Virus genome (UHGV): UHGV-1366990 | From: a virus | DNA: 64,000 nucleotides | Direction: 5' to 3' (one strand) | Shown here: positions 2,981-55,373 of the stretch, piece by piece | Layout: each line of letters begins with the position of its first letter | Numbering within the stretch: position 1 is the first letter of the stretch | The notes under the pieces: model-generated | What the model was told of the DNA's origin: nothing | Seen by the model: only the letters and a program-made list of their open reading frames with translations | The model's database searches: none | Position numbers and translations under genes: made by a program

Positions 2981-2997
2981 AAGCAACCCCAGTCAGA

Positions 2998-3165
2998 TTA
3001 CTTTTTCTTCAGCTCTTCCAGTTTGGCTTCGATTTGTTCTAAGATATCTTTACCCTTCTGAACAATCACTTCACCATCTTGCGCGTGTTTACGGAAGACC
3101 AGAGCGCCAGCGATGAAGCCGACAACCGCGCCAGGAAGCGCATAAACCAGCAGATCTTGTAACAT
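2998..3165 (-). CDS. small membrane protein (55 aa; MLQDLLVYALPGAVVGFIAGALVF...)
   Basis: Below ORF-track length cutoff; ATG at 3165 with GAGGA 8 nt upstream; one predicted TM helix then charged helix. Confidence 0.4.
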   Translation of the reverse strand: MLQDLLVYALPGAVVGFIAGALVFRKHAQDGEVIVQKGKDILEQIEAKLEELKKK

Positions 3166-3201: not shown

Positions 3202-4437
3202 TCAGCGTTTCAAGAGTGTCATGAGGTTGACGCTGCTGGACTTCGGCTTGTCCTCAACCTTGCGCACAGGCATCTTCAGGTTTGTGTAGACCTCGGACGG
3301 TTCCCAGCGCGTACCCTTTTGCAGGTGCCAGATATGTAGAGGAACACCAGTCTCAAAGAACACAGGCATCTTCCACTTCTGGACGCCTGGAACGTGCCCT
3401 GTAGGAGCCTTTTCACATAACAGGGTATCTGGCAGCCAGAGCGAACGGGCTTCCCAGAGCGCTGCGCAGGAGTATTCAGGCCAGACGCGTTCCATGTAGT
3501 CTATCTCATCCCAGGTACGCTCTGCGTCCCACCCGATGTAACGGGTATTCTTCAGTCGGAAGAATTTCTTCAGCCAACAAGCACCGGAGGTTTCAAAGTT
3601 CAGGCGGTTGATGAACGTCAGGTGCCCGAACTCAGCCACACAATCCTGGAACGCCTGCTCAAGGTCGGCCTCAAGGATGTCACACTCTTCATCCGTGATA
3701 GGACAACCGTTGATCTTTTTCTTCCCGTGTTTAGTCACCCAATCGTCACGGTTGGACAAGAACGCCGCGCCATTACGGTTGGACTCGCTTCCATCACGAT
3801 CACGCAGCATGAAGCCAGGGACGTCAATGGTGTATTCGTTCCCGAAGACCATGTTCAGGGCTTCCAGGAAGTTCCAGGCGCTCAGGCGACCGAAGTATTT
3901 CCAGGACATCGCCGTGTCCCACAGCTGGGTGAATTGTTCTGTCTTATCGATGCACACCAACATCCCACGGAAAGCGTCATATTGAGTACGGCCAGCCAGC
4001 CAGTCAATATAGGACTGAACACACGGGATCATCTTGGACTTGCGGTAGCGACAGTCGGTATCGAATCGCATGCGATCAAAGTTCAGATTATACCAATCAG
4101 AGAAGCGCTGCATCTCTTCTTTGGACTGGGGTGGTACAGGGAACTCACTGTAGATCGTCCACGGCCCGACAGCGTTATAGCAACAACCCCACAGGAATGC
4201 CATCCAGATCTTGCGCTCGACTTTCTGTTCGAGACTGATGCCTTCAGTGACTTCGATCGCATAGTCCATCAGACGCATCTGCTGGTTGTGCTCTTCTGTG
4301 TAGGACAGCGCCTCCACCCAAGCCTTGAGCAGGTACATACGATTCTCAGGCTTGCGATAATCAACAGCCAGGTCAATCGGGTACTTCCATTCAGTCGGAG
4401 GCTTATAGCCCGTCGGCATTTTAGATAAATGATGCAT
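3202..4437 (-). CDS. hypothetical protein (411 aa); candidate nucleic-acid modification enzyme
   Basis: Long ORF with GAGGAAG RBS; Trp/Cys-rich; no motif I can name with certainty. Confidence 0.6.
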   Translation of the reverse strand: MHHLSKMPTGYKPPTEWKYPIDLAVDYRKPENRMYLLKAWVEALSYTEEHNQQMRLMDYAIEVTEGISLEQKVERKIWMAFLWGCCYNAVGPWTIYSEFPVPPQSKEEMQRFSDWYNLNFDRMRFDTDCRYRKSKMIPCVQSYIDWLAGRTQYDAFRGMLVCIDKTEQFTQLWDTAMSWKYFGRLSAWNFLEALNMVFGNEYTIDVPGFMLRDRDGSESNRNGAAFLSNRDDWVTKHGKKKINGCPITDEECDILEADLEQAFQDCVAEFGHLTFINRLNFETSGACWLKKFFRLKNTRYIGWDAERTWDEIDYMERVWPEYSCAALWEARSLWLPDTLLCEKAPTGHVPGVQKWKMPVFFETGVPLHIWHLQKGTRWEPSEVYTNLKMPVRKVEDKPKSSSVNLMTLLKR

Positions 4438-4994: not shown

Positions 4995-6593
4995 TCACCC
5001 CTTCTTCATCAGGTCAAGGAGAGAGCGCGACGCTGCCTTCGTTGCTTCTGGCTGGGCGCTCGCCTTGGTTTTAGTTTTGGATGCCTTCTGCGGCTTCTCA
5101 GGCACTCTGTGCGCCAAAGGGTTGCTACCCTTAATCTTGCGCAACATTGGTGTGGTGTCGCAATATTTTTGAAACTCTTCTTTGGACAACCCTCTCAATC
5201 CAACAAAATCTATAATAAAACTACCAATAAAGTGGAGAGGGGCATCGAAGAATTTCAGTATATTCCAACCAACTGCCTTTACACCATTTTCATTCGCTGC
5301 CTTTGCAATGAACAACTCATTCTGAGAGTCTGGTTCAAGTTCGTATCCGATGGAAGCGTACTCACCCATGATCTTGACGTGATCCTTGGTGTATTGTTCA
5401 TTTCTTCCCCAGCCAGTGTCCTTCGCCGCCTTACCAGAACGACCGATGATACGTTTGTCGTAATCTTCCCGCGCTTGGTAAATAAAGGAGATGAATGCCA
5501 TGTTGTTGAACCCCAAGTCCTGGTGTACGAACTCGGGACGCCATCGATGACTCTGCATCATAGGTTCCCCCTCCAAGATGATAGTTGCATCTTTGAACTT
5601 TATTTTGAGATACTTCAACAACGAATTGGCCATCTCAGAAGACTTGAGAGTGGAGTGTATGAAATCCATGGAAGTCCATGATGCTAGACCTGATTTGTTG
5701 GACACTGTATACTTGCCGATGAACACCAGATTGATTTCCTTGAACCAAAACCCAACCTGGATCATCTTCTTGTCGAATTCGTATTCTATGAGTTCTGGCT
5801 CATATTTGGTTCTCAACCACTCAAGGAATTGAACGACACGAGTCCCCTTTCCCGTTCCACTTGTCCCGCGAATAACGACAATACCCGGCGTCACGCTAGA
5901 ATTTATCATAGTCATAAAACGTTTGTCCTCTTTGGGAATCCAACCATCTTTAAACATGGCGATCATATTACGAAAGACGCTCTCATCGCCCTTTAGATTA
6001 CGATACTCTGTGTCCAGTAGTTTAGAATACCACAATCCGATAGATTTGTAACCACATCCTCGTTTTGGCATACTGGTAGGATTCACAGTACCGCCGTTGT
6101 TCACCCATCTATCATAGATCCTACGGGCGTCCTTCCAAACCCACCAATAACCATTTGAAACCATGAATGGGTAGGGAGAATTACCCCTGTTCTCCTTTAT
6201 TGATTTTATTACACGTTCCCGGTATTCTGGATCATCCCAAGGATTTATACCAGATTTGTATTTCTTGCCAGTCCTAGCCAACGCCGCCTTAAATTGGTTT
6301 GGTATGATAGAATTGTCTCCTCCCAATTTCAGGTTCAGACATAACGGGTCCGACAGCAACTCATCCGTAACAATAATAGACTCCAGGTCGGATGCTTCCA
6401 ACCTGGTTTCAAACTTTTCTATTATCGTCTTTGAAAATTCAGAAGCGGGATGGGATTCCAACAACCTTTTGATGATCACACCAGAACCCATATAGGGGTC
6501 TTGTTCAGGAGCACATGAACAAGACCGAATCCCGACGTAGAATCTACCTGTGGGAACATGAGTTATCCTATAGGTGTAATGGTAACGAATCAC
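4995..6593 (-). CDS. GIY-YIG nuclease-like N-terminal domain fused to P-loop NMP-kinase-like domain
   Basis: 532 aa; N-term YTYRITHVPTGRFYVGIRS (GIY-YIG-like); later GTSGTGKGT (GxxGxGKGT P-loop); GTG start overlapping upstream stop. Confidence 0.6.
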   Translation of the reverse strand: MIRYHYTYRITHVPTGRFYVGIRSCSCAPEQDPYMGSGVIIKRLLESHPASEFSKTIIEKFETRLEASDLESIIVTDELLSDPLCLNLKLGGDNSIIPNQFKAALARTGKKYKSGINPWDDPEYRERVIKSIKENRGNSPYPFMVSNGYWWVWKDARRIYDRWVNNGGTVNPTSMPKRGCGYKSIGLWYSKLLDTEYRNLKGDESVFRNMIAMFKDGWIPKEDKRFMTMINSSVTPGIVVIRGTSGTGKGTRVVQFLEWLRTKYEPELIEYEFDKKMIQVGFWFKEINLVFIGKYTVSNKSGLASWTSMDFIHSTLKSSEMANSLLKYLKIKFKDATIILEGEPMMQSHRWRPEFVHQDLGFNNMAFISFIYQAREDYDKRIIGRSGKAAKDTGWGRNEQYTKDHVKIMGEYASIGYELEPDSQNELFIAKAANENGVKAVGWNILKFFDAPLHFIGSFIIDFVGLRGLSKEEFQKYCDTTPMLRKIKGSNPLAHRVPEKPQKASKTKTKASAQPEATKAASRSLLDLMKKG

Positions 6594-26398: not shown

Positions 26399-28480
26399 AT
26401 GAGAACTCAATTTGATCAGGGTGGCGGTTCTACCGGGATCCTCACCAACAAAATGGCGATTGCTCGCCAGTTCGGCGTCAAACAGTCTGAAGTCATCTAT
26501 TTCTCTGCTGGAGTTGATTTATATGGGTACAAGGTCATCTACGACAAAACCACGCAGAGAGCTTACTCCTTACCTTCTGACATTACTGCTGGTACTACTG
26601 CCGTCAGTCTTAGTGTGGCTGCTGTACTCGTCCATTCAAAAGGCTCTGTAGACCTGGGGGCATTGGCCGTAACCCGTGGGGAATTTGTGACAGTTCCTGG
26701 TTCGTTTGCTCTGGGTGCGACGATCAATGTGAAGAACGAACTCCTCGAACGCAACGGTGTTCTCTATTATTGGGGAGGAGCGTTACCGAAGGTTGTTGCT
26801 CCTGGTTCCACTCCGGAAAGTGCGGGTGGTGTCGGGTCGGGCAAGTGGGTGGGTGTCGGGGATGCATCATTAAGGCAGCAGTTAGAGAGTGTCGCCATTT
26901 ATGACAAAGATTACCCAACTATTGCTGAGGCTTTCGGTCGTGCATATTACCTAGGGGCTGCTCTGGTTCTTACTTCGTCTAGAACCATCCGCATTCCAAG
27001 TGATGCACCTAGCCTGCAGTCGGTAGTCGATATCTGCGCAAGAATTAAATCTGACGTTTATCTTACTATTATTCTTGATGCTGGTTTTATCTTTACCGAG
27101 GAAACTTTAGTTGAAAAGCGTGATTGCTCATGGATGACTATTCAGTCAGATGATTCAGTGGTTAAGGTGTCTCCATCATTCTCTGGCATTAACTTAATTC
27201 ATGTTGTTAATTCGTTTGGACCCATCTGGGATATTCTTGCTGATATGGCGGGATCATCAGCAGGTAATGGCATTTATGTAAGACGAAACTCCGACATTGA
27301 AGTGCGCCCGGGAAAGGGAGTTATAAATGCCGTTAACACAGCAGTGGTATCTCTTCCATGCGGTATAGCTATTGTGGAAAGCTCCCGAGGGCATATTCCT
27401 TCCTCAAATTTTTCAGGAAATTACCGAAACCTTTGGGTATCGAAGTCCTCTCAGTGTAATGCGGAGGGGGGTAATTTTGATAATGCAACTGGGGACTTTG
27501 CAACCTATATTGTGCGAAACTCGCTGTGTCATCTCTCTTTGGCTACGGTAAACAACGCCGCACATAATGCTGTCTATGCAAACAACAGTCGCATTACCTT
27601 CCTGGAAGGGGAGGCAATTAATGCTGATACTGCACTTTATGCTGAATTTGCAGGTGTAATTTATACAAGGCCGCGTGATGGCAACATAACCAATATCTCA
27701 GGCTCTCGAATCAATGCAATTTCCGCCTCTAATGGTGGTGTTATTATTGCTGAGGGAATGACAATCTCTACAGCTTCTGGGTTTGGAATTACTGCCCGCG
27801 ACGGTGGGAAGGTCAGTGCGGTAGGGACGTCTGTTTTAGCTACCGGCACGGCGCTGAATGTTTATAACGAAGGGGAGGTAAATATAGCGGGGGATGGTAA
27901 CGTGATTTCCTCTTCTTCTACCGGGGTTAATGTAGTCAAGGCATACCAGGGAGGGAGAATTAACCTTGACGGAGCCGTAGTGACAGGTGGAACTAATGGC
28001 TTGCTCGCCGAGTCTGGTGGAACAATCCACGCGCGAGGTGTTAATATGTCTGGGCAGGCAGCAAACACAATACAAGCAACTGGTGGATACGTTAACGCTG
28101 ATAATTCCGTGCTTTCAAAATCTTCCTTTAATGTCGATGTTGTTTATGCTCGTCGCGGAGGCATTATTGATGCCAACTTTTCAACAATCACCGGAGGGAG
28201 AATCGGGGTGCATGCAGACGTTGGTGGAAGAGTATGTGTAAATAATTCCACTATTAATGGTGCATCAACTGGTGGTGTGCGGGCTACTGGCGGTGAGGTA
28301 TACGCGCAGTCAGCAATAATTCAAAACAACACCGGTAAGGATCTGACAGTTCTATCAGGGGGAGCACTACGCGCAGGCGGTGTAACGACAACTAATTCAT
28401 CTCCAGCCGGAACACCGAACCCCTCAGATGCAAATGCTGCTTTTAATACATTTGCTTCAGTGGGTTTTATTTTTGCATAA
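26399..28480 (+). CDS. tailspike protein 2
   Basis: 693 aa; N-terminal ~150 aa homologous to tailspike 4 N-terminus; beta-helix-like repeats; GAGG RBS. Confidence 0.8.
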   Translation: MRTQFDQGGGSTGILTNKMAIARQFGVKQSEVIYFSAGVDLYGYKVIYDKTTQRAYSLPSDITAGTTAVSLSVAAVLVHSKGSVDLGALAVTRGEFVTVPGSFALGATINVKNELLERNGVLYYWGGALPKVVAPGSTPESAGGVGSGKWVGVGDASLRQQLESVAIYDKDYPTIAEAFGRAYYLGAALVLTSSRTIRIPSDAPSLQSVVDICARIKSDVYLTIILDAGFIFTEETLVEKRDCSWMTIQSDDSVVKVSPSFSGINLIHVVNSFGPIWDILADMAGSSAGNGIYVRRNSDIEVRPGKGVINAVNTAVVSLPCGIAIVESSRGHIPSSNFSGNYRNLWVSKSSQCNAEGGNFDNATGDFATYIVRNSLCHLSLATVNNAAHNAVYANNSRITFLEGEAINADTALYAEFAGVIYTRPRDGNITNISGSRINAISASNGGVIIAEGMTISTASGFGITARDGGKVSAVGTSVLATGTALNVYNEGEVNIAGDGNVISSSSTGVNVVKAYQGGRINLDGAVVTGGTNGLLAESGGTIHARGVNMSGQAANTIQATGGYVNADNSVLSKSSFNVDVVYARRGGIIDANFSTITGGRIGVHADVGGRVCVNNSTINGASTGGVRATGGEVYAQSAIIQNNTGKDLTVLSGGALRAGGVTTTNSSPAGTPNPSDANAAFNTFASVGFIFA

Positions 28481-44794: not shown

Positions 44795-44835
44795 CTTTCA
44801 AATTGAGCGAAACTCTACAGAGAAGGAATAAGATT

Positions 44836-46731
44836 ATGGCAACTCAAAGCTTCAGCGTTGCGCCGTCCGTACAGTGGACTGAGCGTGATGCCACGCTTCA
44901 GACGTCTCCATCCGTTGTTGTTCAGGGTGCGACTGTCGGCAAATTCCAATGGGGTGAAGCAGAACTCCCTGTGTTGGTCACTGGTGGCGAAACTGGTCTG
45001 GTGAAGAAATTCTTCAAGCCAAACGATGCAACTGCCACCGACTTCTTGGTGATTGCTGACTTCCTGTCTTACAGCTCTGTTGCATGGGTGACCCGTGTGG
45101 TCGGTCCGGCGGCACGCAACGCTGTAACCAAAGGTCAGACTGCAATCCTTATCCGCAACAAACTAGACTTCGAAACTGCGTCCCCATCTGCGTCTATTAC
45201 TTGGACAGGCCGCTATGCTGGCTCTCTGGGTAACGACATTGCTGTGAACATCTGTGATGCTGCGCTGTTCCCGACCTGGGAATTTCGTAACAACTTCGCA
45301 TATGCTCCGCAGGCTGGCGAGTACCACATCGCCATCGTTGACAAAGTAGGTCGTATTACCGACTCTTCTGGCGCTGTTAGTCAGGTTGACCGTATCTCTG
45401 TATCCGGTACTGCCACCGCTGCTGGTTCCATCTCTGTTGCTGGTGAAGCCGTGGCGTACACTGACGCTGACACCCCGGCGACTCTGGCGACAAAGATCGG
45501 AACCGCGCTGACGTCTCTGTCTGACGTGTATTCTTCTGTTGTCGTGAAGTCCAACACCGTCACCGTCACCCACAAAGCAATCGGTCCTCAGGCTGCGACT
45601 GCGATTGTTCCAGACGCGAATGGTCTGACTGCTACCGCTGCCGTCACCACTGTTGGTGCTTCCGGTACGATCATCGAGAAGTATGAACTGGTGCAGACCG
45701 CTCAGGGTTCTAAGAAATCTGATGGATCCAATGCGTACTTCAAAGACGTGATCAACGGCACCTCAAATTGGGTGTACACCTTCGCCACTACCCTGGCTGC
45801 TGGTGTCATTGAACTCGAAGGTGGTGTAGACGATTACACTGGGAACCGTGTTGCGGCTATCCAGGCACTGAACAACGCCGAAGCGTATGATGCCAAGCCA
45901 GTGTTCGGTTTCTGTGAAGAACTGATTGAGCAGCAGGCACTGATCGACCTGTCCACCGAGCGTAAAGACACAGTGTCCTTTGTGTCTCCTCTTCGCGATA
46001 CGGTCGTCGGAAACCGTGGCCGTGAGATGGATGATGTTGTGGCCTGGCGTGAAAGCCTTGTTCGCGACTCCTCCTACTTCTTCATGGATGACAACTGGGC
46101 GTATGTGTACGACAAGTACAACGACAAAATGCGTTGGATTCCGGCTTGTGGCGGCACCGCAGGTGTTTGGGCGCGAAGCATTGAAATCGCGGGTATCTAC
46201 AAGTCTCCAGCGTTCCATAACCGTGGTAAATACAACAACTATAATCGAATGGCGTGGTCTGCGTCTTCTGATGAGCGTGCTGTGCTGTATCGCAACCAGA
46301 TCAACAGCATCGTCACCTTCTCCAACGAAGGCATCGTGTTGTACGGCGACAAGACTGGCCTGACCCGCCCATCGGCGTTCGACCGCATCAACGTTCGTGG
46401 TCTGTTCATTATGGCAGAGCAGAATATCGCAGCCATCGCCAAATACTACCTTGGTGAGAACAACGATGCATTCACTCGTGGGTTGTTCAGCAACGCTGTC
46501 CGCCCATATATCCGCCAGTTGGCCAACATGGGCGCGATCTATGACGGGATGGTGAAGTGTGACGAGGACAACAACACCGCTGATGTTATCGCTGCGAACC
46601 AGATGGTCGCGGGTATCTGGCTGAAACCAGAATACTCCATCAACTGGGTGTATCTGGACTTTGCTGCGGTACGTCCGGACATGGAGTTCAGCGAGATCGA
46701 AACTGGCGGTGGCATCGTAGCCGCTTCTTAA
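44836..46731 (+). CDS. gp18: tail sheath protein (gp18-like)
   Basis: 631 aa; N-terminus MATQSFSVAPSVQWTERDATLQTSP typical of contractile sheath; GAAGGA RBS; follows terminase as in T4. Confidence 0.9.
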   Translation: MATQSFSVAPSVQWTERDATLQTSPSVVVQGATVGKFQWGEAELPVLVTGGETGLVKKFFKPNDATATDFLVIADFLSYSSVAWVTRVVGPAARNAVTKGQTAILIRNKLDFETASPSASITWTGRYAGSLGNDIAVNICDAALFPTWEFRNNFAYAPQAGEYHIAIVDKVGRITDSSGAVSQVDRISVSGTATAAGSISVAGEAVAYTDADTPATLATKIGTALTSLSDVYSSVVVKSNTVTVTHKAIGPQAATAIVPDANGLTATAAVTTVGASGTIIEKYELVQTAQGSKKSDGSNAYFKDVINGTSNWVYTFATTLAAGVIELEGGVDDYTGNRVAAIQALNNAEAYDAKPVFGFCEELIEQQALIDLSTERKDTVSFVSPLRDTVVGNRGREMDDVVAWRESLVRDSSYFFMDDNWAYVYDKYNDKMRWIPACGGTAGVWARSIEIAGIYKSPAFHNRGKYNNYNRMAWSASSDERAVLYRNQINSIVTFSNEGIVLYGDKTGLTRPSAFDRINVRGLFIMAEQNIAAIAKYYLGENNDAFTRGLFSNAVRPYIRQLANMGAIYDGMVKCDEDNNTADVIAANQMVAGIWLKPEYSINWVYLDFAAVRPDMEFSEIETGGGIVAAS

Positions 46732-46773: not shown

Positions 46774-47076
46774 ATGAAAAGTTTTTCTCAATTTTTAGCA
46801 GAAGCAGGTCTAAAAGGTGACCTTCAGAAAGTTAAAGACTCCGTGATTGAATGGTTGGAAGACCAAGATGTAAGGCTCAAAAAGGGTGATATCGAAAATG
46901 GAGTATTTGGAGATTTCTTCCGCATAACCATTGATGATTTTGAATATACATATAATGGCAAAGAGATTAAAGTATTCGACCTGAAGAAAGATAAACAGGT
47001 TGTTAGCAAGGCTGCTGGAACTCGAGAAGCCCCAGGTGAACTCGGTAAATTGTTTAAGAAATACAGCAAAGTGTAA
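46774..47076 (+). CDS. hypothetical protein (100 aa)
   Basis: GAGG RBS; followed by strong terminator. Confidence 0.5.
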   Translation: MKSFSQFLAEAGLKGDLQKVKDSVIEWLEDQDVRLKKGDIENGVFGDFFRITIDDFEYTYNGKEIKVFDLKKDKQVVSKAAGTREAPGELGKLFKKYSKV

Positions 47077-47159: not shown

Positions 47160-47207
47160 TCTAAACATAAGCAGTACGACACCAACTTGAAACGAAGGAT
47201 CTATATC

Positions 47208-47564
47208 ATGACCAAGACCGAAATTAACGCTATCCTGAAAGAAATCGGCCTCTGTAACCTGAAACGCCGCATCAATCCTTACCAGCCTGCAAAGCCAGTA
47301 CGCGACAGCCAGGGAAAGATGATAAAAGGGATCTACTGTGCAGATGTTGGTCCAATGACGGTGACCAGTCCACACATTGACAGATTTAACGCTATTGTTG
47401 GGGAGTTTTGTGGTAAGGTTCTGGGTAAACTGTCTAATGATTTATGCTCCCCAGATACCAAAGTTGTAGCTTTCGGGAGCCACCTCGTCACCTTCCACCT
47501 CACCACCTTCCGTACCCACGGTGATTATCATGTGTATTATGCTCAGGTTAGCATTCGCAAATAG
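47208..47564 (+). CDS. hypothetical protein (118 aa)
   Basis: ATG inside conserved GAAGGATCTATATCATG context (track start 47187 is TTG). Confidence 0.5.
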   Translation: MTKTEINAILKEIGLCNLKRRINPYQPAKPVRDSQGKMIKGIYCADVGPMTVTSPHIDRFNAIVGEFCGKVLGKLSNDLCSPDTKVVAFGSHLVTFHLTTFRTHGDYHVYYAQVSIRK

Positions 47565-47570
47565 TAGTTT

Positions 47571-47598
47571 ACCCCGCTGAGGCGGGGTTTTAGTTTTC
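47571..47598 (+). terminator. intrinsic terminator ACCCCGCTGAGGCGGGGTTTT
   Basis: GC hairpin and T-run. Confidence 0.55.
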
Positions 47599-47602
47599 CA
47601 GT

Positions 47603-47878
47603 TCATACCGGATAAGACCACACCCCCCCCCAGATACACCCCAACCCGGTTTCTATCGCCAGTATATCCTCTGTTTTACCTTCTACATTGTATCCAAGTT
47701 TAAGGAATTTCTCTTTCCTGAGTTTACTATCAACCCAAGATCGGCATTCAGTTTCGGTCGTCGGGTTGTTATCCAACAAACCCGGATTGCGTTTCATCGT
47801 CCCCAGCATGAATGATTTACATTCGTCACTACAATACAACGCAGCCTTCCTGGTTGGGTGAACGGTTTGTGACAGCAT
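47603..47878 (-). pseudogene. internally deleted remnant of a homing-endonuclease-like gene (inverted paralog of 53901..55373)
   Basis: N-term RKAALYCSDECKSF and C-term GYNVEGKTEDILAIETGLGCIWG match both ends of the 490-aa protein; no RBS; contains G9 tract. Confidence 0.45.
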
Positions 47879-47952
47879 GAACAATTTTTATCGGGGAATG
47901 GCATAATAAATATCCTCACTTTGGAGTATTTTAACCCCCATTTATTTCAAAA

Positions 47953-47960
47953 CTAAATAT
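47953..47960 (+). promoter_or_regulatory. late-promoter-like motif CTAAATAT
   Basis: 26 nt upstream of tail tube ATG. Confidence 0.4.
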
Positions 47961-47985
47961 TTACACTATTCAGAGGAGAACGACC

Positions 47986-48519
47986 ATGGCTACAGTTAAT
48001 GAATTCAGAGCAGCTATGTCACGCGGGGGCGGCGTTCAGCGCCAACACCGTTGGCGTGTGACTGTTAACTTCCCTTCCTTCGTGGCTGGAAGCGATACTA
48101 TCCGTGATGTTTCGCTGTTGGCGGTGACCACAAATACCCCAACAGGCCAGCTCGGGGAAATACTCGTCCCATGGGGTGGTCGTGAACTTCCATTCCCAGG
48201 CGACCGTCGTTTCGAGGCTCTGCCTGTGACGTTCATCAACGTCGTGGACAACGCTCCGTACAACGCATTCGAAGTCTGGCAGCAGTATATCAACGGCAGC
48301 AACAACAACCGTGCGTCTGCTAACCCAGATGATTATTTCCGTGATGTAATCATGGAACTGCTGGATGCTAACGACAACGTCACCAAGACCTGGACCCTTC
48401 AGGGCACCTGGCCTCAGAACCTCGGTCAGCTGGAACTGGACATGTCTGCAATGGACTCTTATACTCAGTTCACTGTTGACCTGCGTTACTTCCAGGCCAT
48501 TTCAGACAAGTCTCTCTAA
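47986..48519 (+). CDS. gp19: tail tube protein (gp19-like)
   Basis: 177 aa; AGAGGAGAA RBS; follows sheath as in T4. Confidence 0.8.
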   Translation: MATVNEFRAAMSRGGGVQRQHRWRVTVNFPSFVAGSDTIRDVSLLAVTTNTPTGQLGEILVPWGGRELPFPGDRRFEALPVTFINVVDNAPYNAFEVWQQYINGSNNNRASANPDDYFRDVIMELLDANDNVTKTWTLQGTWPQNLGQLELDMSAMDSYTQFTVDLRYFQAISDKSL

Positions 48520-52382: not shown

Positions 52383-52473
52383 TTTTAGCAGCCACAGCCC
52401 TCGAAAGGGGGCTTGATTTTGAACTACTAAGTAATTTCAACTTAACTGAATATCAATGTAAGGAATGACCATC

Positions 52474-53796
52474 ATGGCTAAGAAACTTGTTACCGAACAA
52501 ATGCGCGAGCAGTGGCTGCCAGTTCTTCAGAAAGAATCTGAAAGCATCCAGCCGCTTTCTGCCGAAAACGTTGCCGTCCGTCTGCTGCAAAACCAGGCTG
52601 AGTGGAACGCCAAAAACCTGGGCGAATCCGACGCTCCTGGCTCCGTGAACGCCTCTGTGGGCAAATGGCAGCCAGTCCTGATCGACATGGCCAAACGTCT
52701 GGCTCCGGTCAACATCGCGATGGACTTCTTCGGTGTTCAGCCGCTGTCTGGTCCTGACGGTCAGATCTTCGCACTGCGTGCTCGCCAGGGCGTTGCAGAC
52801 GGCTCCAACACTGCCCAGTCCCGCGCTGAGCTGTTCATGAACGAAGCCAACTCCGGTTACTCCGGTGACGACACTGCACAGGCTGGCGACCCATCTGGCT
52901 TCTCCCAGACTGAGATCGAAGGTTCCGGCGCTGCTACCACCACCATCGGTAAAGGTATGTCAACTGCCGACGCTGAACTGCTGGGCACCACCACCAACCC
53001 ATGGGCACGTGTTGGTATCACCGTTCAGAAAGCAACCGTGACTGCGAAGTCTCGCGGCCTGTACGCTGACTACAGCCACGAACTGCGCCAGGACATGATG
53101 GCGATCCACGGCGAAGACGTTGACAGCATCCTGTCCGACGTGATGGTAACTGAAATTCAGGCAGAGATGAACCGTGAGTTTATCCGCACCATGAACTTCA
53201 GCGCAGTACGCTTCAAAAAATTCGGCACCAACGGTATCGTAGACATCTCCACTGACATCTCCGGTCGTTGGGCGCTGGAAAAATGGAAGTACATGACTTT
53301 CATGCTGGAAGTTGAAGCGAACGGCATCGGTGTTGACACCCGTCGTGGTAAAGGCAACCGTGTTCTGTGTTCTCCGAACGTAGCGTCTGCCCTGGCGATG
53401 TCCGGCATGCTGGATTATGCTCCGGCACTGCAGGAAAACACCAAGCTGGCGATTGATCCGACTGGCCAGACCTTCGCTGGTGTGCTGTCTAACGGTATGC
53501 GTGTCTACATCGACCCGTATGCAGTAGCAGAATACATCACCCTGGCATACAAAGGCGCAACCGCGCTGGACGCTGGTATCTTCTTCGCACCGTATGTGCC
53601 GCTGGAAATGTACCGCACCCAGGGTGAAACCACCTTCGCACCACGTATGGCGTTCAAGACCCGCTACGGGATTTGTGCTAACCCATTCGTTCAGATCCCA
53701 GCGAACCAGGATCCACAGGTCTATGTGACTGCGGATGGTATCGCCAAGGACACCAACGTGTACTTCCGTAAAGGGCTGATCAAAGGCCTGTTCTAA
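52474..53796 (+). CDS. gp23: major capsid protein (gp23-like)
   Basis: PVNIAMDFFGVQPLSGPDGQIFALRARQG and C-terminal KTRYGICANPFV..YFRKGLIKGLF match T4 gp23; AGGA 9 nt before ATG 52474. Confidence 0.93.
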   Translation: MAKKLVTEQMREQWLPVLQKESESIQPLSAENVAVRLLQNQAEWNAKNLGESDAPGSVNASVGKWQPVLIDMAKRLAPVNIAMDFFGVQPLSGPDGQIFALRARQGVADGSNTAQSRAELFMNEANSGYSGDDTAQAGDPSGFSQTEIEGSGAATTTIGKGMSTADAELLGTTTNPWARVGITVQKATVTAKSRGLYADYSHELRQDMMAIHGEDVDSILSDVMVTEIQAEMNREFIRTMNFSAVRFKKFGTNGIVDISTDISGRWALEKWKYMTFMLEVEANGIGVDTRRGKGNRVLCSPNVASALAMSGMLDYAPALQENTKLAIDPTGQTFAGVLSNGMRVYIDPYAVAEYITLAYKGATALDAGIFFAPYVPLEMYRTQGETTFAPRMAFKTRYGICANPFVQIPANQDPQVYVTADGIAKDTNVYFRKGLIKGLF

Positions 53797-53900: not shown

Positions 53901-55373
53901 ATGTATCAGGTAATCTGTAGTGTCTGCCATGAACAGTTCAAAGCATCCAGGAAAGATAAGAAATTTTGTTCAGATGCTTGCAAGACCTTCGCATCGAACA
54001 CCCTAAAGAACCTCCCGGAAGGTTTCCTTGAAGCAGTGAATGAATTGTCTGACGAGGAATCATATCGCCAATTTTTCTACAAATATATGTTTACCAAGAA
54101 CAACAAATTGGATATCCAAAAATGCAAATCTGAACTGCTTATGAAGCACATCAATGTAGACCTTTTAGCGTTCGCCAATACCCACAACACCCTACAAGAT
54201 TTGGCTTGTAAAGTCACAGCTTGGCTGTACAATAGAACCGTGAAAATATGCCCGGTGTGTTCCAAGGAAACCAACTTTTATATCAATAATAAAGATTACA
54301 GAACATATTGTTCTGAAGAATGTTATCAGGTTTCTATGTGTAAAGGTGGGATTGGTCGGAAAGCCATAGAGACTTCGAATATATCCAAATACGGGAGCTG
54401 CTCCACACTACAATTACCTGGTGTGAGGGAGAAGGCGTTGGCAACGTTACAAGAACGTTATGGTGTTGACAACCCTATGAAAAACTCGAACATACTAAAA
54501 CGTGCGTTGTTCAGCAATGGTTCTATCAGGAACAAGAAATCTTCTTATGAAAAGGAAATATCCGAGTTTCTCACCTCAATGGGAGTTGTAAACACTGTTT
54601 CTGATTACAGTATATTATCCGGTAAACAACTGGATATCTATTGCCCTGAACACAAATTGGCGATTGAATTTAATGGTCTGTACTGGCATTCAGAAGTTTT
54701 TAAAGAGAAACATTATCACCTGGAAAAGACTGAAATATGTGAATCTCAGGGTATCCAGTTGGTCCACATCTGGGAAGATGAATGGGTTGAGAAACAGGAA
54801 GTGGTCAAATCTCTTCTGAAAGCTAAACTTGGCATTAAAACGCCTGCGTCATATGCTCGCCAACACAAAGTCGTTTGGGGGAATATAAGCGGCTTGAGGG
54901 AGTTTTTAGACAACCACCACATACAAGGTTCCGTTTCTTCCACCCACCATTTATCGTTAATTGACAAGAGTGGGGTCATACAAGCCGTGATGCTATTCAC
55001 TAAAAGGAAAGATGGCCTGGAATTAGTCAGATTTGCCTCTAATGATTGCCACGGAGCATTCAGTAAACTTCTTTCACACTTCAGAAGAAAATTTGCCGGC
55101 ACCAAAATCTATTCCTTTGGGGATAGGTGTGTTGTAAGCAGGTTGTCCAACATTTACCTATCCCACGGATTCGTAGAAGAGGAAGTACAGAAGCCAGACT
55201 ACAAATATCACAAGCCTGGCACATTTATGCGTGAGCACAAATTCGGTTTCAGAAAAGGTTCATTTGCTCGCATGGGGTATGACGTAGAAGGCAAAACAGA
55301 AAGCCAGTTAGCAACCGAAGCCGGGCTGGTCAGGATTTGGAATTGTGGACTGATCAAATATGTCTTGAACTAA
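53901..55373 (+). CDS. free-standing homing-endonuclease-like protein (Zn-ribbon N-terminus plus Vsr/DUF559-like nuclease core)
   Basis: 490 aa from ATG with GGAGGAG RBS; CxxC..C motifs; LAIEFNGLYWHSE resembles Vsr FVDGCFWH; inserted right after capsid gene. Confidence 0.6.
   Translation: MYQVICSVCHEQFKASRKDKKFCSDACKTFASNTLKNLPEGFLEAVNELSDEESYRQFFYKYMFTKNNKLDIQKCKSELLMKHINVDLLAFANTHNTLQDLACKVTAWLYNRTVKICPVCSKETNFYINNKDYRTYCSEECYQVSMCKGGIGRKAIETSNISKYGSCSTLQLPGVREKALATLQERYGVDNPMKNSNILKRALFSNGSIRNKKSSYEKEISEFLTSMGVVNTVSDYSILSGKQLDIYCPEHKLAIEFNGLYWHSEVFKEKHYHLEKTEICESQGIQLVHIWEDEWVEKQEVVKSLLKAKLGIKTPASYARQHKVVWGNISGLREFLDNHHIQGSVSSTHHLSLIDKSGVIQAVMLFTKRKDGLELVRFASNDCHGAFSKLLSHFRRKFAGTKIYSFGDRCVVSRLSNIYLSHGFVEEEVQKPDYKYHKPGTFMREHKFGFRKGSFARMGYDVEGKTESQLATEAGLVRIWNCGLIKYVLN

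Follow-up and report, generated by a model that had tools for sequence, protein, structure and literature searches.

A probable relic of a Hef-like homing endonuclease gene in the sheath-tube region of an Agtrevirus-like phage

What is the short minus-strand open reading frame (ORF) that lies among the tail genes of this phage, and does it still encode a protein? We read the window (the whole 64,000-nucleotide stretch of UHGV virus genome UHGV-1366990 that was analysed) as probably derived from an Agtrevirus-like phage (Ackermannviridae, subfamily Aglimvirinae). Structural genes at ~34.0-46.0 kb of the window share 97.8-98.5% identity with those of the Escherichia phages RPN242, A221, LHE287, YX22, PC3 and ZQ1. 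The first-pass annotation placed an ORF of 91 codons between the sheath and tube genes and took it for a decayed, inverted paralog of a homing-endonuclease-like gene for a 490-aa protein elsewhere in the window. The position is correct, with the addition that two small ORFs also lie between the sheath gene and the ORF in question (Table 1). We conclude, with a probability of about 0.9, that this ORF is the non-functional relic of a homing endonuclease gene (HEG) that was free-standing and Hef-like (Vsr-like/EDxHD-type) and formerly occupied the sheath-tube region on the opposite strand.

An intact gene at the same site in related phages

The proposed kinship with the 490-aa protein was borne out by BLASTP. 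The ORF matches the C-terminal end of this protein with 18 of 31 residues identical (E 3e-9, residues 450-480) and the N-terminal end with 13 of 29 (E 2e-5, residues 16-44), and no match was found between these two blocks. Thus, the likeness goes beyond chance, and the nuclease core is missing from the ORF.

A closer relative occurs in other phages at the site itself. At the same position, ZQ1 encodes a 594-aa protein annotated as a "putative homing endonuclease", on the strand opposite to the structural genes. A gene in the same place and orientation is also present in A221, PC3, Dickeya phage LIMEstone1 and the Kuttervirus phages maane and Mutine, and in all six genomes (these five and ZQ1) it is an uninterrupted ORF of 591-596 codons. 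Orthologs with at least 80% identity were identified in 26 phage records. With the ZQ1 protein, the remnant ORF shares 94% identity in residues 17-65 (46/49) and 84% in residues 553-584 (27/32), compared with 45-58% identity to the ends of the paralog in the window. At the nucleotide level, its ends are 97-98% identical to ZQ1, A221 and PC3 (224-225 of 230 nt in the 5' part and 154-155 of 158 nt in the 3' part). Judged by its ends, the nearest relative of the remnant is the ZQ1/F-LimVIII type and not the paralog in the window. The idea of a fossil HEG at a second site therefore stands, supported by the intact genes at that site; the kinship with the 490-aa gene is real, but it is not the closest one. 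F-LimVIII is the LIMEstone1 gene, which its authors called Hef-like (PMC3296691).

The ZQ1 protein matches the phrog_3339 family ("homing endonuclease") over positions 1-534 (E 3.5e-191). It carries DUF7487 repeats, and in Pfam and NCBIfam searches residues 346-411 give Vsr/DUF559/MTES_1575-like matches that fall below the curated cut-offs. NCBIfam and PDB sequence searches with the family returned only weak Vsr, YacG and 3r3p matches, the last (the I-Bth0305I catalytic domain) with an E value of 0.088. Searches with tblastn tie the intact genes to Hef or Hef-like annotations in phages of Campylobacter, Proteus and Acinetobacter. The catalytic assignment of the Hef-like genes is thus a putative one, by weak homology together with the literature.

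The 490-aa paralog is intact and is 42% identical to the ZQ1 sheath-tube protein over its full length. A smaller number of DUF7487-type repeats makes it ~100 aa shorter. Residues 116-145 of the paralog give a weak match to a YacG-like zinc ribbon.

Anatomy of the remnant

Alignment to the intact alleles places the remnant in a larger pseudogene, the features of which are listed in Table 1.

Table 1. Coordinates of the remnant, its neighbours and related features (positions in the window unless another sequence is named; L004, RPN242; L015, Logan contig SRR25011136)
Feature	Coordinates	Strand	Details
Tail sheath gene	44803..46731		5' neighbour of the site
100-aa small ORF	46774..47076	+	between sheath gene and remnant
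125-aa small ORF	47187..47564	+	phrog_13016 match
GC-rich hairpin ACCCCGCTGAGGCGGGGT	47571..47588	none	between the convergent 125-aa ORF and pseudogene; terminator-like
Pseudogene footprint	47590..47904	-	original ATG 47902-47904 to original TAA 47590-47592, from alignment to six intact alleles
3' (C-terminal) part	47590..47714	-	~last 40 codons; KEKFLKLGY[DN]VEGKTE...IWGCGLIRYELEN
Minus-strand ORF	47603..47884	-	93 aa from TTG
91-codon ORF of the first-pass annotation	47603..47878	-	starts at ATG 47878
G9 run (C9 on + strand)	47623..47631	-	+4 relative to G5 before TGTGGTCTT
Deletion junction, TCAGGAA	47715..47721	-	7-bp microhomology; from blastn coordinates and alignments
5' (N-terminal) part	47722..47904	-	~first 61 codons; CSCCHKPF...YCSDECK Cys-rich motif
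Frame opened by original ATG	47794..47904	-	36 codons, MPFPDKNCSCCHKPFT, then out of frame, premature stop; listed as ORF 47794..47919
-1 frameshift	47856..47858	-	C4 in TTCACCCCAACC of all intact alleles, C3 here
Ribosome-binding region GAGGATATTTATT	47905..47917	-	GAGGA 47913-47917; identical in all intact alleles
Tail tube gene	47986..48519		3' of remnant
490-aa Hef-like paralog, intact	53901..55373	+	downstream of major capsid gene (52465..53796)
RPN242 GIY-YIG gene	L004 659-1372	structural strand
Extra lesions of L015	L015 ~2990-3060

Three lesions separate the remnant from the intact genes. The first is the loss of one C 16 codons past the original ATG, after which the frame closes at a premature stop, 36 codons in all. 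The second is a large internal deletion. Window positions 47500-47721 match the ZQ1 locus (L002) at 3802-4019 and positions 47715-48000 match it at 5486-5772, with 95-97.6% identity. TCAGGAA, at which these two blastn blocks overlap by 7 nt, is present once in the window and twice in ZQ1 (L002 4013-4019 and 5486-5492), the copies being 1473 bp apart. The deletion is therefore of 1473 bp, equivalent to 491 codons and in frame, and resembles a typical product of slippage or of microhomology-mediated loss. It takes out the DUF7487 repeats and the Vsr/DUF559/MTES_1575-like core (ZQ1 residues 346-411), in agreement with the first-pass statement that the ORF lacks the nuclease core; by itself, the remnant has no Pfam match. 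The third lesion is the G9 run. All six intact alleles have G5 before the same sequence, and the expansion to G9 shifts the last 10 codons, so that CGLIRYELEN becomes GVWSYPV followed by a stop. When both frameshifts are undone in silico, the two gene ends are read in frame as one product of 103 aa.

The 91-codon ORF is thus the portion of the pseudogene in which the HEG frame has been kept; its ATG is an internal one that serves as a start by chance, and its stop is introduced by the G9 frameshift. On the minus strand, the 18 nt that precede ATG 47878 (CCCCGATAAAAATTGTTC) contain no purine run of the Shine-Dalgarno type, since this codon is internal to the original gene. The ORF therefore lacks a ribosome-binding site (RBS), as had been claimed, though the original RBS survives upstream in another frame.

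The match of the remnant to phrog_3339 extends only over residues 54-86 (33 residues, positions 493-525, E 6.6e-6). Full-length profile homology, a nuclease core and an uninterrupted frame from its own RBS and ATG are all missing, which sets the remnant apart from functional Hef-like (phrog_3339) genes. It has instead the properties of an orthologous relic, i.e., the locus, orientation and flanking signals of the intact genes, the high nucleotide identity given above, a defined junction and no conserved frame. There are ~4 synonymous and ~4 non-synonymous substitutions in the remnant, too few for dN/dS.

The 3' end of the pseudogene adjoins the GC-rich hairpin, which is kept in the relatives and is labelled as a terminator in the annotations of LIMEstone1 and Mutine. 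The 100-aa ORF, without a family match, is found in ZQ1, LHE287 and Klebsiella phage Magnus and is missing from A221 and PC3. The 125-aa ORF (phrog_13016, unknown function) travels with the Hef-like gene wherever the latter occurs, including the Kuttervirus phages maane and Mutine. The T4 late-promoter consensus TATAAATA is not enriched, with one match in the window and none at the remnant locus.

Other remnant alleles and alternative readings

In a protein search, the same 91-aa sequence was recovered unchanged from six metagenome contigs in ENA (L009-L014), which derive from six samples and at least two projects. These contigs are 100% identical to the window across their whole length (1.1-2.4 kb), including C3, the junction and G9, and represent the same strain. 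Since they were assembled separately, the lesions are real and not an artefact of a single assembly. Logan contig SRR25011136 (L015) is 98.5-99.1% identical to the window and has the same junction and the same G9. It carries additional lesions: 70 bp have been lost between direct repeats of 9 bp (TTCATGCTG), and 2 bp (TG) are missing right after the G run. The extra deletions appear to show continuing erosion by the same microhomology mechanism. In the terminase large subunit (736 aa) of L015 (6037-6378) and of a second Logan contig (6053-6393; SRR16327202, L016, 151 kb), the Pfam list contains a faint Intein_splicing match.

We identified a second type of remnant in LHE287 (GenBank) and in L016. 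The core is again missing, but the junction is different: the N-terminal part is 20 nt longer (...GGTTCGTTGAACT) and is joined to TGGATAC, which lies 18 nt deeper in the C-terminal part. This junction has a microhomology of AACT, or TTGAACT given a maane-like parent allele, and the deletion is 1471 bp and out of frame. Three features of the window recur in L016 and are present in no intact allele: the C3 frameshift, a change of ACC to ACT and a change of CGT to TGT. As the C3 frameshift is common to both remnant types, it is probably older than the large deletions. L015 and L016 both have the variant GATGAAATTG close to the start, which suggests recombination among remnant alleles. Exact-match scans of IMG/VR and JGI metagenome contigs for the window-type junction, and of IMG/VR for the C3 frameshift site and the LHE287-type junction, gave no matches; thus, no full-length frameshift-only intermediate was found. 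No gene is annotated at the site in the LHE287 record. The GenBank LHE287 sequence and the near-identical L016 differ mainly by single bases in homopolymers (C5/A4 near the start, C4 vs C3, G3 vs G4), and errors of sequencing in either record may account for this.

The two junctions are separated by only 20 nt on the 5' side and by 18 nt on the 3' side (window 47700-47740), and by our own estimate random end points would be this close with a probability of ~5e-4. Both are spanned by an imperfect repeat of 25/27 nt. The window type consists of the N-flank, the C-copy and the C-flank, and the LHE287 type consists of the N-flank, the N-copy and the C-flank. Two separate deletions at a single hot spot would produce such a pattern. 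We considered an unusually good direct repeat as the cause of this near-coincidence and rejected it, as the repeat scores 15 compared with a chance best of ~22, and longer direct repeats occur elsewhere in the gene. It is improbable, in our estimation, that the sheath-tube Hef-like gene contains a true deletion hot spot, or that both strands of the heteroduplex from one deletion event survived as lineages. Speculatively, the mismatched intermediate of such an event might have segregated into both versions of the junction. If either reading were true, the alleles would preserve a trace of how HEGs are excised in phages whose replication depends on recombination.

The remnant might instead have been domesticated as a mini-protein, in which the Cys-rich N-terminal motif and the C-terminal tail act, e.g., as a DNA-binding immunity or anti-homing factor against the Hef-like enzymes of co-infecting phages. 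The deletion in the window is exactly in frame, the RBS and ATG are preserved, and the two small indels (-1 and +4) together amount to a multiple of three. However, translation from the true ATG is out of frame after codon 16 and stops at codon 37, so the first CxxC of the Cys motif is cut off from the remainder, and the 91-aa ORF has no RBS of its own. Other remnant alleles break the frame in other ways (the 1471-bp, 70-bp and 2-bp deletions, and G4). The ORFs called by gene finders in these alleles (91, 125 and 130 aa) differ in their starts and ends, and this absence of a conserved frame argues against a coding function. We regard a retained protein as very unlikely.

The G9 run was highlighted in the first-pass annotation as a slippage-prone tract. 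Its location (as C9 on the plus strand) is exact, but there is no evidence of current slippage variation. It is the only homopolymer longer than six in a window that is strongly depleted of such runs: five runs of at least six are present (three A6, one G6 and C9, and no run of T), compared with 44.6 +/- 7.2 in mononucleotide shuffles. Related loci (L001-L008) are equally poor in long homopolymers. The expansion from G5 to G9 also creates GGGTTGGGGTGTATCTGGGGGGGGG at 47647..47623, and no other canonical G-quadruplex motif is present on the window's minus strand; at this position the intact alleles have three G3+ tracts only, and the one other canonical motif in the 64 kb (26824-26849) is on the plus strand. 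Both properties would suit a functional element, either a contingency (phase-variable) tract with slippage-controlled expression or a G-quadruplex that acts on transcription between the convergent genes. Yet the tract is confined to the final codons of a gene that two other lesions have already inactivated, and relatives with G4, G5 or a GIY-YIG insert at this site are viable phages. Its length is nine in 8 of 8 sequences with the window junction (the window, L009-L014 and L015). The persistence of G9 in L015 through ~1% divergence of the flanks gives no sign of length variation at the consensus level. A G7 length variant considered in L015 was rejected, as the sequence is G9 plus the 2-bp TG deletion. 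We thus see very little chance that the tract is functional; it was probably a neutral product of slippage in dead DNA and not a regulatory switch. Still more speculative is the notion that the expansion was selected as the maker of the minus-strand G-quadruplex motif. A conspicuous homopolymer alone is not evidence of phase variation.

A further reading, in which errors of sequencing or assembly produced G9, the frameshift or both, is already effectively refuted: homopolymer errors are common, and the LHE287 and L016 sequences differ mostly at such sites, but the six separate assemblies agree in every lesion and a seventh data set (L015) also has G9.

We found no direct contradiction of the reading of a non-functional relic, but two observations speak for caution before the remnant is called pure junk. 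Conservation is perfect in the original promoter region, the RBS and the ATG, and ~300 nt of remnant have been kept, with few substitutions, through ~1-2% divergence of the flanks. This could simply reflect a recent origin. Once the HEG was fixed in the lineage, selection on endonuclease activity would have ended, and decay by replication slippage or microhomology-mediated deletion would have followed, probably as a frameshift, then the large deletion and then further erosion. As a protein the remnant presumably does nothing; at most, it would be transcribed from the old promoter and yield a 36-aa nonsense peptide. The relic thus represents degeneration, one stage in the usual cycle of homing endonuclease genes. 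Goddard and Burt are said to have modelled this HEG cycle as one of invasion, fixation, degeneration and loss.

A contested site and its known relatives

In RPN242, YX22, AV101, fGh-Ecl02, CECAV_050 and SKML-39, a gene for a GIY-YIG endonuclease is located directly between the sheath and tube genes, on the structural strand, and the same is the case in many Kuttervirus and some Dickeya phages. Phages of this type lack both small ORFs and the Hef-like gene, i.e., the whole insert is replaced. In the Agtrevirus-like carriers of the GIY-YIG gene, the structural genes upstream of the site are ~98% identical to those of the window. Given this shared background with different inserts, the site has at least four states: the intact Hef-like gene, two types of remnant and the GIY-YIG gene. 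Two HEG families may thus compete for one intergenic site, to judge from the sequences. The Hef-like gene and the phrog_13016 ORF are present in a few Kuttervirus phages, which belong to another subfamily, and this is consistent with lateral movement. We found no cluster of SNPs linked to HEG presence in the tube gene and the portal 5' region; the differences are scattered and mostly in third positions.

For annotation, the 91-aa ORF should be entered as an F-LimVIII-type pseudogene and not as a hypothetical protein. The alleles form a series at one site, behind upstream structural genes that are ~98% identical: the intact gene, the frameshift with the 1473-bp deletion, the 1471-bp deletion, the further 70-bp deletion and the GIY-YIG gene. 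This series is usable for the study of HEG competition and decay in the Ackermannviridae.

The closest known system is F-LimVIII of LIMEstone1, with orthologs in ZQ1, A221, PC3/PH4 and the Salmonella phages maane, Mutine and KE31 (PMC3296691). The remnant has the same locus, strand, RBS, start, stop and terminator hairpin, and its ends are 97% identical in nucleotides to the Agtrevirus alleles and about 75-87% to LIMEstone1. Unlike these genes, it has lost 491 internal codons, including the core, carries two frameshifts and cannot encode the enzyme. A wider group includes Hef of the T4-related phage U5 (Sandegren et al. 2005, as cited in PMC3296691) and I-Bth0305I (PDB 3r3p), and Taylor et al. 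assign the phage Hef-type enzymes to a Vsr-like "EDxHD" family (PMC3239194). The intact alleles and the 490-aa paralog fall in this phage Hef-type group, whereas the remnant has no nuclease domain at all.

Degenerate HEGs are expected from the homing cycle and have been seen in T4-like phages, so that the remnant is an ordinary case. The truncated I-TevIII of phage T4 is a defunct homing endonuclease gene (PMC2790892). As with I-TevIII, an inactivated gene is retained at the site of homing, and relatives still carry intact copies. However, I-TevIII is encoded in an intron and can be mobilised in trans by MobE, whereas the gene that gave rise to the remnant is free-standing.
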